Counted from the first letter of the stretch, positions 1,596 through 8,425 are shown. The stretch is DNA of 64,000 nt from Corallococcus sp. AB011P (GCF_003611605.1 NZ_RAVX01000011.1:4811-68810); one strand, 5' to 3'. A program made the numbers and translations. The notes: generated from the letters alone by a model not told the origin.

Positions 1596-2252
1596 TCACT
1601 TCAGCGTCCCGGGCGTCGTGGACTCCAGGACGGGCGAGCGGGTGGGGGGGAGCTTCCCGCCCCCGGTGGCTTGCACGGTGAGCACCAGCTCGGTGCCGCG
1701 CGGCAGCAGCGTCCCCGGCTCGGCCGAAGCCGCGGTGACCAAGGCTGCGTCCTTCGCGCCGTCAGGGAACCGGTGGGGCACGCCGATGGCGGACAGCAGC
1801 AGCCGCGCGTCGGCCACCGTCTTGCCCACCACCGCTGGCACCACCACCAGCGCCTCCGCCTGGGGCGAAGGCGGCACCGGCACCACCCGGAACTTCAGCC
1901 GCGACTGCGCCGTCAGGTTGTAGGCGAAGCGGTTGGTGTAGCTGGCGTCCATGGGCGCGCCGTACATCTTCAGCCGCGTCCGTCCATCCGTCCGCTCCTC
2001 CGCGGTGATGGACAGCGCCACGGCGATCTCCGCCTCGGCCTCGGGGATGTGGTACCAGGTCGGCCGGTAGCCGATGCGCTGCAGCTCCACCGCCAGGTCC
2101 TCGTCCGAGGCGTAGAGCTCGCGGATCCGTTCGATGGTCGCCGCGTCCAGCTCCCGCTGCGCCTCCGCCACGCCGCGGCCCACCGACGAGATCAACGCGC
2201 CCAGCGGCGCGCTCAGCGCCTCCAGTTGGGGGACGTCATTCGAATCCGCCAT
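1596..2252 (-). CDS. Paralog-family protein (N-helix AEAQxxLD, C motif FRVVPVPPSP) fused to C-terminal PASTA-like domain (gene B)
   Basis: ATG at 2252 with GGAGG 8 nt upstream, 3-nt gap after gene C stop. N-terminal LGALISSVGRGVAEAQRELD. RLKFRVVPVPPSP is followed by VVGKTVADARLLLSAIGVP...GTLLPRGTELVLTV (PASTA-like). Confidence 0.65.
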   Translation of the reverse strand: MADSNDVPQLEALSAPLGALISSVGRGVAEAQRELDAATIERIRELYASDEDLAVELQRIGYRPTWYHIPEAEAEIAVALSITAEERTDGRTRLKMYGAPMDASYTNRFAYNLTAQSRLKFRVVPVPPSPQAEALVVVPAVVGKTVADARLLLSAIGVPHRFPDGAKDAALVTAASAEPGTLLPRGTELVLTVQATGGGKLPPTRSPVLESTTPGTLK

Positions 2253-2255
2253 GGT

Positions 2256-2987
2256 TCAGCCCTCCATCGCCTGGCCAATGATCAACTGCACGGGGCCCGA
2301 AGCGAGCGGCTTGCCGGGCTCCGGAATCTGCCGCAGCACGCGCCCCCACTGCCCGGGCTCCTTGACGAAGAGCGGCATCAGGTCCACCCGCAGCCCCGCC
2401 TCCGCCGCGCGCCGCCGGGCCGCCGAGGCCGTCAGCCCCAGGAAGCCTGGCACCTCGCGGGCGGGCGCGTCGCCCGGCTCGGGCGCGGCGGGAGACTGCT
2501 CCACGAACTGGGCCTCCGCCTCCGTCACGCCCTCGGGCGTCGTCTCCGTCCACCGCACGCGCACGGTGCTCAACCGCACCGTCGTCAGAGACGCGCGCAC
2601 CGCTTCAATCTGCTGGCCCGCCGACTTCAACTTGTCGGACAGCACCAGGGACGTGGCCTGTTCCTGAGCGGGCTCCTTGGTGGGCTCCACCGCCGCGGAG
2701 GACACGGCGCGGATGCCCTCCCTCGCGGGCTCCAGGACCACCATCGTCCCGTAGTCGATGAGGGTGCTGCTCATCTTCACCGGGAAGGTGGCCACCCCGG
2801 CGGAGTCCAGCCGGAGGTGGGAGCCGAAGGTGGCGCTGGTGACCTCCATCTCCAGCACGCCCTCCTGGTTCGTCACCCCGGTGTCGCGCAGCTCGAAGGT
2901 GCCCGCCTTCGCGGGGACCCACCACGCCACCTTCATTCCCGCCACGGGGACTCCCGTGGCCTTGTGGAACACGGCCCGGACCTTCAT
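2256..2987 (-). CDS. Protein with carboxypeptidase-regulatory-like beta-sandwich N-domain and C-terminal PASTA-like domain (gene C)
   Basis: Internal ATG of ORF 2256..3281 gives MKVRAVFHKATGVPVAGMKVAWWVPAKAGTFELRDTG... The ATG 2987-2985 overlaps the gene D stop 2986-2984 (ATGA). C-terminus FLGLTASAARRRAAEAGLRVDLMPLFVKEPGQWGRVLRQIPEPGKPLASGPVQLIIG. Confidence 0.6.
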   Translation of the reverse strand: MKVRAVFHKATGVPVAGMKVAWWVPAKAGTFELRDTGVTNQEGVLEMEVTSATFGSHLRLDSAGVATFPVKMSSTLIDYGTMVVLEPAREGIRAVSSAAVEPTKEPAQEQATSLVLSDKLKSAGQQIEAVRASLTTVRLSTVRVRWTETTPEGVTEAEAQFVEQSPAAPEPGDAPAREVPGFLGLTASAARRRAAEAGLRVDLMPLFVKEPGQWGRVLRQIPEPGKPLASGPVQLIIGQAMEG

Positions 2988-6319: not shown

Positions 6320-6328
6320 GGGGCCTCC

Positions 6329-8425
6329 TTACGGGTACCAGCGCTGGAGGTAGTCGCCGATGGCCTGGAGGAACTGGGGCGGCGCGGGCACCGCCACCAG
6401 GCGGGCCTTGATGGTCGAGCTGCCGGACACGCTCAGCTCGTACTTCACGGCCAGGTGCGCATCCACGTTGAGGGCGCGCAGCTCGCGCTCGGAGCTCTCC
6501 TCGCGGTCCGCGGACGGCTTGCCGGCGATGCGGTTGGCCGACAGCAGGAAGGCGGCGGGGTTGCTGGTGCCCAGCATGGTGCCGGAGGGGCCGGAGACGG
6601 TGACGATGTTGCCCGCGGACTGGGCCTGGAGGCCCGCGGCCAGCAGGCCGGAGCTGGAGCCCGCCGTGATGGCGGCGGCCAGGTTGCGCGCCGTGTCCGC
6701 GGCCGTCACCCCCAGCGTGAACTGCCCGGGCTGCGGGGCGACGCCGGTCTCCACGGCCACCAGCTGCACGTTGTCGATGACGACGGTGTCGCGCGGCTGG
6801 GGCGAGGCCGGCGGGCGGCCGTCGCCGAAGCGGCGGGCCACGCGGATGGAGCCCGCGGCGGACAGGACCGGCGCGGTGGGCGTGCGCGCGAACAGGGTGA
6901 ACAGGGCGTGGTCACCGGTGCCGTACAGGTAGACGCGGTCCCCGCGCGCGAAGGCGCCGAAGGCGGTGTTGGCGTTGGCGTCGCGGATGGCGCGGGCCAG
7001 GTTGGCGGCGGTGGACTCGGCGGTGGCGCCCACCGCGAAGGTGGTGCCCTGGGAGGCGGTGCCCTGGGTGAAGTCCGTGCCGCGGAAGGTGACGACGGCC
7101 GTGGTGGGCGCGTTCGCCGCGGCGCGCGTGCGCGGCACGATGCGGGCCTCCCGGTCCGCGCCCGTGGGGTCGAAGGCGGCCGTGGCCGCGACGGTGCGGG
7201 CCACCAGCGCCGCAGGCACGCCGGCGAACTTGAAGACGACGCGCCGGTTGGCCGCCAGGTCGGAGCCGCTGAAGTCGACCGTCGCGCCCATGCCCCGGGC
7301 CGTGAGCCTGCTGGCCGCCACGCCCCGCGACGTCAGCGCCCGCAGGACGTAGTCCGCGCGCTTCTGCGACAGGCGCTGGTTGTAGCCAGGGGCCGGCGGG
7401 GTGCGCAGGTCCGCCCAGCCCTCCAGCACCAGCGAGGCGGACGGATTCTCCGCCAGCAGCGCCGCCACCGCGTCGAGCACGGCGGAGGGCTCGCGGTCCG
7501 TGCCGTAGGTGGTGGTGGGCACGTCGTGGATGTCGGTGTCGAAGTAGAGGGCCCGGTTGCAGTCAGCGCCGGAGACGACGACGAAGGCCGCCGGGTCCAC
7601 CTGCTGGCCAATGTCCGCCAGCGCCGCGCCCACCGTCGCCGCGGTGCTGGTGTAGCGCGTGCCGTTGGTGGCCGGCAGCAGCAGCGCGGGCGCGGGCGTC
7701 ACGCTGCCCAGCCGCGCGATGACCAGGTTGTCGCCGGGCGCCGCCTGCGGCGAGGTGCGCACGGTGATGACCGAGCGGTTGATGGCGTAGAGGTCCGGGC
7801 GGGTGGTGCTGGCGGTGACGCCCGACTGCATCTCCCAGTCCATGAAGACGCCGCCCAGGTCTCCCGCGGCCTGGTTGGTCCAGGAGGAGTTGTTGCGCAG
7901 GGCCACGAGCAGCTCCTGCGCCGTCTCCCACAGCGTGTCCTGGCGGGCGACGGGCAGGCCGGTGCTGTTGGGCCCCACGCCGCCGTCCAGCGCGTAGCTG
8001 GTGGTGCCCACCGTGAGGTGGCCCGGCGCGTTGGCCACCAACGCCAGACACGCGTACGGGGGAATGCCCTCGCCGTCCTGCACGGTGAGGGTGGCGCTGC
8101 CGCTGGCGGAGGACGTCTCGAGGCTGTACTCGCTCGACTCGTTCTCCCGGTCGTAGTTGAAGTTGACGTCCACGTCGACGGTGGTCGAGTAGTAGACGTT
8201 GAGGTTCACCTCCAGGTCGGCGTACTGGAAGTGGTAGAAGGCCGGCCGCAGCCCCAGCGACAGCAGGTTCTGCGTCATGCCCGGCAGGACGGTCTGCCCC
8301 ATGCGCAGCGTCTGATCCACGCTGTTGGTGTCCAGCTTGGTCTGGGCCTCGGCGATGGCGAGCCCCATGTCCCGGATGAAATCGGAGATGTTGAGATCCG
8401 CGAGGATCTTCCCTGCTTTCGGCAT
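6329..8425 (-). CDS. Large paralog-family protein I with embedded OmpA-like peptidoglycan-binding domain (about aa 305-400, nt about 7226-7513)
   Basis: ATG 8425. N-terminal ISDFIRDMGLAIAEAQTKLD, FYHFQYADLEVNLNV. OmpA C-like block SASLVLEGWADLRTPPAPGYNQRLSQKRADYVLRALTSRGVAASRLTARGMGA...ANRRVVFKF. The C-terminus YELSVSGSSTIKARLVAVPAPPQFLQ matches the family C-motif. Confidence 0.7.
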   Translation of the reverse strand: MPKAGKILADLNISDFIRDMGLAIAEAQTKLDTNSVDQTLRMGQTVLPGMTQNLLSLGLRPAFYHFQYADLEVNLNVYYSTTVDVDVNFNYDRENESSEYSLETSSASGSATLTVQDGEGIPPYACLALVANAPGHLTVGTTSYALDGGVGPNSTGLPVARQDTLWETAQELLVALRNNSSWTNQAAGDLGGVFMDWEMQSGVTASTTRPDLYAINRSVITVRTSPQAAPGDNLVIARLGSVTPAPALLLPATNGTRYTSTAATVGAALADIGQQVDPAAFVVVSGADCNRALYFDTDIHDVPTTTYGTDREPSAVLDAVAALLAENPSASLVLEGWADLRTPPAPGYNQRLSQKRADYVLRALTSRGVAASRLTARGMGATVDFSGSDLAANRRVVFKFAGVPAALVARTVAATAAFDPTGADREARIVPRTRAAANAPTTAVVTFRGTDFTQGTASQGTTFAVGATAESTAANLARAIRDANANTAFGAFARGDRVYLYGTGDHALFTLFARTPTAPVLSAAGSIRVARRFGDGRPPASPQPRDTVVIDNVQLVAVETGVAPQPGQFTLGVTAADTARNLAAAITAGSSSGLLAAGLQAQSAGNIVTVSGPSGTMLGTSNPAAFLLSANRIAGKPSADREESSERELRALNVDAHLAVKYELSVSGSSTIKARLVAVPAPPQFLQAIGDYLQRWYP

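Follow-up and report, generated by a model that had tools for sequence, protein, structure and literature searches.

What might a bacterium build from six related proteins that are encoded almost side by side, in an operon whose products carry no recognizable enzyme domain? This question is raised by a gene cluster of Corallococcus sp. AB011P, located in a 64,000-nucleotide stretch of its genome (GCF_003611605.1, NZ_RAVX01000011.1:4811-68810), which is called the window here; coordinates are counted from its first letter. An initial annotation of positions 1596–8425 had described six paralogs with a conserved N-terminal helix, a central beta-hairpin, a C-terminal proline motif and a hypervariable middle, and had likened their design to that of flagellins. 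The family does lie in this interval, but the unit to which it belongs is larger: eleven closely spaced minus-strand genes form an operon at 1142–10056, transcribed in the order K-J-I-H-G-F-E-D-C-B-A, of which I, H, G, F, D and B are the family members. Pfam and NCBIfam detect no enzyme domain in any of the eleven operon proteins, and signal peptides and consistent hydrophobic or transmembrane segments are lacking from all eleven protein classes. The reading that we favor is that the six paralogs may co-assemble, through their hairpins, into a barrel or tube.

The family itself is real. In order of transcription, its members are I (6329–8425; 698 amino acids), H (5816–6319; 167 amino acids, the shortest), G (5221–5793; 190 amino acids), F (4612–5202; 196 amino acids, the most conserved), D (2984–3688; 234 amino acids from the start of the open reading frame (ORF), or 221 in RefSeq, where it begins at Met14) and B (1596–2252; 218 amino acids). 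The helix, hairpin and proline motifs quoted in the initial annotation were all found where it had placed them, in minus-strand ORF translations; G also belongs to the family, but starts at 5793 and not at the 244-residue ORF start that had been assigned to it. In all-against-all BLASTP comparisons, F and G share 43% identity (E=1e-46), and all of B, F, G, H and I are significantly related to each other, with E-values of 4.6e-30 for F–H, 2.8e-19 for G–H, 1.1e-12 for B–G, 9.6e-12 for B–H, and 2e-11 (N-terminus) and 8e-6 (C-terminus) for H–I; both ends of I match H, F and G. The sixth paralog, D, is divergent. BLASTP detects no relation of D to the other members (best E=1.3), and a profile made only from D orthologs recovers B orthologs and vice versa, while hhalign connects D with B at 96.9% (E=1.6e-10; D residues 22–133 against B residues 11–137) and with H at 90.9%. 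All remaining member pairs score 97.9–100% in hhalign (F–H and F–G 100%, B–F and B–H 99.7%, B–G and H–I 99.6%), and all three motifs recur in the consensus of the D family, as LADGLxxAQxxL (helix), YxxPYLDFxL (strand) and SGRFVAVPPNxGLP (proline-closed strand).

One could object that short motifs recur by chance among unrelated small proteins, and the invisibility of D to BLAST (best E=1.3) fits such an objection. However, hhalign probabilities are high among all six, iterative profiles arrive at the same ~400 ORFs at 83 loci whichever of B, F, G, H and I they are seeded with, and exactly six members are present in 58 of the 61 related loci with both ends of the operon, family size being conserved in orthologous loci. 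Judged by these sequence comparisons (BLASTP, profiles, hhalign and locus counts), coincidence is already refuted, and we assign it next to no probability. The family may even extend further. Gene A and the second half of C match each other at 99.9% in hhalign, or at 98.6% with the PASTA domains removed, and their short module aligns with the N-terminal portions of F, D, B and I at a probability of only 45–65%; the module could make A and C degenerate members number seven and eight, a relationship that is possible but unproven.

Three core elements are common to the six proteins: an N-terminal helix and a beta-hairpin of great length, both amphipathic, and a (V/I)P(V/I)PP motif by which the hairpin is closed; I, H, G, F and B additionally share an N-terminal segment, GQELLNVPFxxM. 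An AlphaFold2 (AF2) model of F, computed from 55 sequences, has a mean predicted local distance difference test (pLDDT) score of 71.5, with values of 85–93 at residues 20–90 and 150–170. It comprises a helix (15–44), small strands (47–71), the two hairpin strands (81–109 and 131–158), the VPIPPP motif and a C-terminal helix (162–191), so that each strand of the amphipathic hairpin measures ~28 residues. Amphipathicity of the helix exceeds that of shuffled sequences in five of the six families (z ~2–3) and is weaker in I (z=1.6), whereas the first hairpin strand shows a period-2 alternation in all members (hydrophobic moment z 2–5 against shuffles, with 5.1 in H). Near-invariant charges (D86, E90, K92, K140, R152 and K154) alternate with hydrophobic columns. 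In H, the alternation continues into the hairpin tip, the most hydrophobic of the family, as a V-x-V-x-V pattern with Gly or Ser between the valines (consensus SVGGSVSVGVGVGMFAASVSASY).

The variable parts are inserts and appendages which carry binding domains, in line with the variable insert of the initial annotation, and they sit at discrete places: the hairpin tip in I, the segment after the helix in G orthologs, and the C-terminus in B and D. The core of I is split, with the helix and first strand at residues 1 to ~90 and the second strand plus a VAVPAPP motif at ~650–685, and its hairpin tip holds an insert of ~550 residues that includes an OmpA-like peptidoglycan-binding domain (residues 314–391; PF00691, E=8.6e-11, 42.5 bits, above the gathering score of 27.2). 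This domain is kept in 55 of 58 I orthologs; the AF2 model of I, for which 13 myxobacterial homologs were usable, has a mean pLDDT of 48.7, is confident only at ~230–410 around the OmpA region and is unusable for a fold search. G orthologs of most other phyla have ~80–100 additional residues between the helix and the first strand, which splits their domain matches. In B, the core (residues ~10–135) is followed by a PASTA domain (29.2 bits, cut-off 23.2), and in D by an Ig-like domain that resembles Big_1 at sub-threshold level (E=1.5e-4), so that the conserved proline motif, although present throughout, is not C-terminal in these two members. In relatives elsewhere, the C-terminal addition is Big_2 or consists of one or two lectin domains of the ConA-like type (Laminin_G_3 fusions). 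The middle is not hypervariable in the sense of flagellins: Corallococcus strains are 96–99% identical, and it is between the paralogs that these regions differ, by discrete insertions.

The operon is found far beyond the myxobacteria. Its canonical order, K-J-I-H-G-F-(E)-D-C-B, is preserved in 58 of the 61 loci with both ends, and the related loci belong to Myxococcota, Proteobacteria, Bacteroidota, Verrucomicrobiota, Gemmatimonadota and further phyla; Halomonas, Pleionea, an alphaproteobacterial metagenome-assembled genome (MAG) and a metagenome contig all repeat it. A scan of one genome per species recovered relatives in 275 species. Positive organisms include the myxobacteria Corallococcus, Myxococcus and Archangium, the Proteobacteria Halomonas, Marinobacter, Psychromonas, Saccharophagus and Pleionea, Croceibacterium and other Alphaproteobacteria, as well as Flavobacterium, Dokdonia, Fluviicola, Aquimarina, Opitutales, Gemmatimonadota, Latescibacterota and Nitrospirota. 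F has at least 1726 homologs, ~50% identical across phyla and all unnamed, none of which has a Pfam match in the core module; G has 1640 homologs at E<=1e-10, and an exhaustive HMMER search of 1.84 billion representatives returned 1140 clusters at E<=1e-3. Each paralog of the window is closest to the gene at the equivalent operon position in Halomonas and Pleionea, with position-matched identities of 55% (H, gene 4), 53% (F) and 47% (G) to Halomonas, of 42% (B) and 40% (J) to Pleionea, and of 31% (D) and 24–29% (K) in the same comparison. Given one ortholog per paralog, the duplications must be ancient and predate the spread of the operon, with every paralog retained since. The sporadic occurrence across phyla, in neighborhoods of unrelated, ordinary chromosomal genes, suggests that this spread occurred by horizontal transfer. 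Plasmid carriage is limited to one megaplasmid, and viral contigs of IMG/VR contain no relative of the family.

Individual loci depart from the common picture. On metagenome contig L085 (3378–11468), the operon is divided into two divergent halves, D-C-B and K-J-I-H-G-F-E, inserted between formate dehydrogenase genes and fdhE, and the gene at the I position encodes only 289 amino acids without an OmpA domain. The operon of the alphaproteobacterial MAG (L084; flanks 1–2052 and 15755–17338) is bordered by AAA_15/AAA_21 and AAA_16/AAA_22 ATPase genes and a methyltransferase; these flanks look like a defense island, a pattern not seen at the other annotated loci. Two MAGs labelled 'Enterobacteriaceae' (L010) and 'Mycobacteriaceae' (L052) carry the operon as well. 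The former has an F ortholog 72% identical to that of Corallococcus and a myxobacterial-type operon with gene A, and both labels are probably the result of mis-binning. In Pleionea sediminis (L003), an extra family member of 309 amino acids is followed, at 15171–16111, by an endolysin with GH108 and PG_binding_3 domains and a gene transfer agent (GTA)-type holin with three transmembrane segments. A lysis cassette as a general feature of the operon was considered and rejected, given that the GH108/holin pair is confined to Pleionea.

Comparison with databases places the core outside the described families. Pfam, NCBIfam, PHROGs and PADLOC contain no model of the module, in agreement with the initial annotation, which had assigned no Pfam family. 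A profile search of all Protein Data Bank (PDB) sequences returned nothing at E<=10, and Foldseek with the F model found nothing better than E=0.13 in the PDB. Nearly all entries of the weak Foldseek list are long beta-hairpin stems of assembled pores (CDTb, iota Ib, lysenin, aerolysin, anthrax protective antigen (PA) and epsilon toxin), phage collar tubes or flagellar LP and MS rings; this list says only that the modelled monomer resembles a protomer removed from a large beta-barrel. The best match in BFVD is one unnamed viral protein (E=1.2e-4, TM-score 0.34). Neither gas-vesicle, R-body nor pilin proteins are viable candidates, as there is no Pfam match and the N-terminal helix is amphipathic rather than hydrophobic as in pilins; likewise, a viral origin, including phage tails and tailocins, was dismissed for lack of a PHROG match and of IMG/VR relatives. 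We found no description of the operon in the literature, and both operon and core family appear to be undescribed, with a core fold that has no solved relative.

A single lead points to a known family. The initial annotation had guessed at Trypco2 (PF19631), and this is indeed the sole Pfam echo, yet all scores remain below the gathering score of 24.2 bits. A alone reaches 18.6 bits (E=0.0022), the consensus of the A module 22.9 bits (E=1e-4) and the consensus of B 13.6 bits (E=0.081), Trypco2 being the sole Pfam match of both consensus sequences. At E<=0.1, 10 of 148 members match (best 4.2e-4). The match is limited to profile positions 1–47 of 78; the consensus sequences of F, H, D, the N-terminal part of I and the C mini-module give no match, nor does the G sequence of the window at E<=1. 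In terms of sequence, the lead is real but sub-threshold: the design matches, and membership is not established. Pepco (Trypco1/2) proteins are reported to form SDS-resistant beta-barrels of 9–10 subunits, in which the lumen is charged, the outside hydrophobic, the base made up of amphipathic helices and the C-terminal tail rich in proline and charges (bioRxiv 10.1101/2025.11.14.688446), and to act as protease-activated pore effectors in anti-phage systems (10.1101/2025.11.14.688446; eLife 2020, PMC7159879).

How, then, could the six proteins work together? A family that always counts six, always occurs in order and has a core suited to strand pairing points to one hetero-oligomeric assembly, and we give a probability of about 0.4 to the six being subunits that co-assemble into a barrel or tube. 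The hairpins would pair edge to edge between subunits to close a beta-barrel or tube, either as a single hetero-oligomeric ring to which every paralog contributes one hairpin or as stacked rings. This barrel would have one hydrophobic face and one that is charged or rich in Ser and Thr, and the amphipathic helices would form its base, a design as reported for Pepco barrels and for the stems of beta-pore-forming toxins (beta-PFTs). The domains that bind peptidoglycan and glycans would anchor the assembly to a cell wall or direct it there, and J (a tetratricopeptide repeat (TPR) protein), K (repeats resembling the C-terminal domain (CTD) of L7/L12) and E (charged and variable in length) could provide chaperone, adaptor and scaffold functions. 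Our best guess is that such an assembly would serve as a pore or conduit in a membrane or the envelope. A pore could be aimed at the producing cell, as in abortive-infection type defense, or at other cells after release; these more specific roles, a self-directed defense pore, a released toxin complex or an envelope conduit, each carry less weight than co-assembly as such.

Several observations weigh against a barrel. It is deduced from a monomer model of F, in which the hairpin tip (residues 106–139) has a pLDDT below 50. In F, G, B and D the tip is polar, and in I an insert of ~550 residues at this place is hard to reconcile with membrane crossing. OmpA-like, PASTA and Ig-like domains are usually extracytoplasmic, yet the eleven proteins lack signal peptides and transmembrane segments, and no conserved export or lysis genes lie near the operon. 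The likeness to Trypco2 is not only sub-threshold but strongest in the mini-module of A, whose own hhalign link to the family is limited to the 45–65% given above. No peptidase domain occurs in the operon proteins or in their neighbors in Corallococcus, Halomonas, Pleionea and two other loci, and PADLOC 2023 offers no relevant match: its two marginal hits pair protein E with RT_III-A (E=0.016) and the OmpA domain of protein I with ZorB (E=0.032).

Part of the same evidence could be read differently. The flagellin comparison would turn the six paralogs into an axial-like filament, with the conserved ends as the polymer core, the variable middle exposed, and the paralogs in successive filament positions, as are rod, hook and junction proteins. 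Conserved ends around a variable insert, clearest in I, agree with such a filament, six position-specific paralogs in fixed gene order recall the ordered axial paralogs of flagella, and the charged, length-variable E could act as a ruler. However, Flagellin_N, Flagellin_C and Flg_bb_rod give no match at E<=1 in Pfam or NCBIfam, the conserved C-terminal element is a beta-strand with a VPVPPP motif instead of a D0-type helix, the strains show no hypervariability, and a type III export apparatus is missing from the operon and from the 10 kb around it at five annotated loci. The flagellin-like design is hence not supported, and we consider a filament of this kind quite improbable; what survives is the broader idea of polymerising or co-assembling subunits with a common core. 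The analogy is limited to paralogs with a shared core, variable inserts and possibly ordered assembly; there is no homology to flagellar axial proteins, and the core is a beta-hairpin here and a coiled coil there.

Alternatively, the helix–hairpin core could be a docking module, an adaptor that joins six cargo or binding proteins to one partner, be it K, J or E. The N-terminal segment common to five members, the ~5 repeats of K, each of which could hold one subunit, and the differing binding domains on many members are all compatible with docking, but a cargo domain is missing from F and H, and in this genome from G, and yet these are the most conserved members, at ~50% identity across phyla, and a long exposed amphipathic hairpin would be unusual for a simple docking domain; we consider this explanation unlikely. 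Similarly low is the likelihood that we attach to a released particle or bacteriocin-like complex, which would assemble in the cytoplasm, leave the cell by lysis and, through its PASTA, OmpA, Ig-like and lectin domains, bind and damage the envelope of other cells. Such a complex would account for binding domains that are all of extracytoplasmic types in proteins devoid of signal peptides; in addition, the operon of Pleionea is directly followed by the GH108 endolysin and GTA-type holin, genes with PG_binding_1, PG_binding_3 or Amidase_2 domains lie downstream at a few other loci, and the best BFVD match (E=1.2e-4) is viral. Among the 83 loci, however, the endolysin/holin pair is found in Pleionea only, and the family has no relative in IMG/VR, no PHROG match and ordinary chromosomal neighborhoods.

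If co-assembly into a barrel is pursued to its most far-reaching form, the operon would encode a new, horizontally spread envelope machine: a conduit built as a heterohexameric or stacked-ring barrel of a new helix–hairpin fold, independent of Sec signals, assisted by J and K, tethered to peptidoglycan through OmpA-like and PASTA domains, and founding a new class of diderm apparatus for pore formation, secretion or lysis. We regard this elaborated version as rather doubtful. In any case, ~10 genes including six paralogs have kept a constant order in at least eight phyla, while their products are annotated as hypothetical or in generic terms (OmpA family, PASTA). Cultivable carriers include Halomonas, Marinobacter, Fluviicola, Dokdonia and Corallococcus, and a set consisting of structural proteins only, with wall-binding modules and without export signals, makes the form of the assembly, its location and its route to the wall testable. 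If the link to Trypco2/Pepco were true, an immune pore effector encoded by one gene would be connected with a far larger, multi-paralog apparatus, and the spectrum of beta-barrel pore formers known from bacteria would become broader.

The remaining genes of the operon encode candidate accessory components. K (8974–10056, minus strand), the first gene, specifies 360 amino acids with ~5 tandem repeats resembling the L7/L12 CTD and no further domain. PF00542 scores 29.6 bits on the whole protein (cut-off 25.9) and matches 31 of 51 K orthologs, and z-scores of the repeats against each other and against the CTD of Escherichia coli L12 reach up to 6.7. Orthologs of K are present at 68 loci, and we know of no protein other than K that is built of L7/L12-CTD repeats. 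J (8429–8977, minus strand; 182 amino acids) is a TPR protein, its matches to TPR_12, TPR_2 and TPR_1 all being sub-threshold, has orthologs at 71 loci and is a candidate chaperone or assembly factor. E (3642–4592, minus strand; 316 amino acids) is highly charged, rich in Arg, Glu and Ala, and has a C-terminal tract rich in Met, Asp and Glu (MDMESMEQRMDMEMERAGMGMDDMD). It stands outside the family, is unrelated to every other operon protein in hhalign and has no match in Pfam, NCBIfam or PHROG; E orthologs vary between 224 and 535 amino acids and occupy the F–D interval of related loci, and E is a possible scaffold or ruler. C (2256–2987, minus strand; 243 amino acids) combines an N-terminal Ig-like domain, a short helix–hairpin–proline module and PASTA (26.4 bits, above the 23.2 cut-off), and its orthologs often have added coiled coils. 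The last gene, A (1142–1576, minus strand; 144 amino acids, or 138 in another annotation), occurs mostly at myxobacterial loci and encodes a short helix–hairpin–proline module with a PASTA-like domain below the gathering cut-off (PF03793, E=0.0013, 19.1 bits against 23.2). Across the A, B, C and D classes, PASTA is matched by 108 of 148 orthologs.

Operon proteins have exact database matches in Corallococcus sp. AB011P, and the public annotation of the locus in a sister Corallococcus strain has identical gene calls. Four-nucleotide overlaps join K to J, where the stop codon of the former overlaps the start of the latter, and D to C (ATGA), and the remaining intergenic gaps mostly measure 3–22 nucleotides. 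At the G–F junction (5203–5223, minus strand), both genes share one reading frame and are separated by one stop codon plus 18 nucleotides. Read-through of the G stop would yield a G–F fusion, the shared frame is probably coincidental, and no natural tandem fusion of two core modules exists among related loci. With ~70% GC in the operon DNA, promoter and terminator scans at the operon ends were uninformative. On its 3' side, the operon is followed by a gene for a DEAD-box helicase with DUF3516. Upstream and divergent from the operon lie genes for a DUF4142 protein (10343–10978, plus strand) and a Ser/Thr protein kinase with a Pro-rich linker (11127–12782, plus strand); these two neighbors are absent from related loci outside the myxobacteria.

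Among known systems, Pepco is closest in design. Like Pepco, the family members are non-enzymatic, and most are small, with an N-terminal amphipathic helix, strands that have a hydrophobic and a charged face, and a proline-containing C-terminal segment; the family displays this type of architecture in AF2 secondary structure, column hydrophobicity and moments against shuffles, with Pepco represented by its published description. Pepco neighborhoods also contain peptidoglycan-binding domains, which in the operon are fused into the subunits themselves. In contrast, members measure 167–698 amino acids, compared to about 117 for Pepco, their hairpins are much longer, and six fixed paralogs take the place of one gene. 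The operon has no adjacent protease, STAND or other sensor, and no recurrent peptidase was found among 98 downstream neighbors. Hosts differ as well, Pepco being found mainly in Actinobacteria and cyanobacteria and the operon in diderm bacteria of water and soil.

With beta-PFTs such as anthrax PA, CDTb, iota Ib, aerolysin, lysenin and the bicomponent leukocidins, the family has in common the long amphipathic hairpin, the alternation with Ser, Thr and Gly (H tip) and the attachment of receptor- or other binding domains to a candidate pore-forming unit. The pattern of a membrane-insertion hairpin is clear in H and present in the first strand of all members, but F, G, B and D have polar tips and I has its ~550-residue insert there. 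No significant match in fold or sequence accompanies this likeness (E>=0.13), and, unlike these toxins, the operon proteins have no signal peptides and no prepore-type body, the hairpin and two helices being nearly the whole protein. In leukocidins, paralogs can alternate within one barrel. More generally, Mce1A–F, the Sm/Lsm rings and the bicomponent leukocidins are all rings made from fixed sets of paralogs. Unlike Mce, the operon proteins have no MlaD/MCE match in Pfam, and no permease or ATPase partners are encoded. As in the Mce heterohexamers, however, six tandem paralogs, each with its own ortholog, suggest one copy for each position of a ring.

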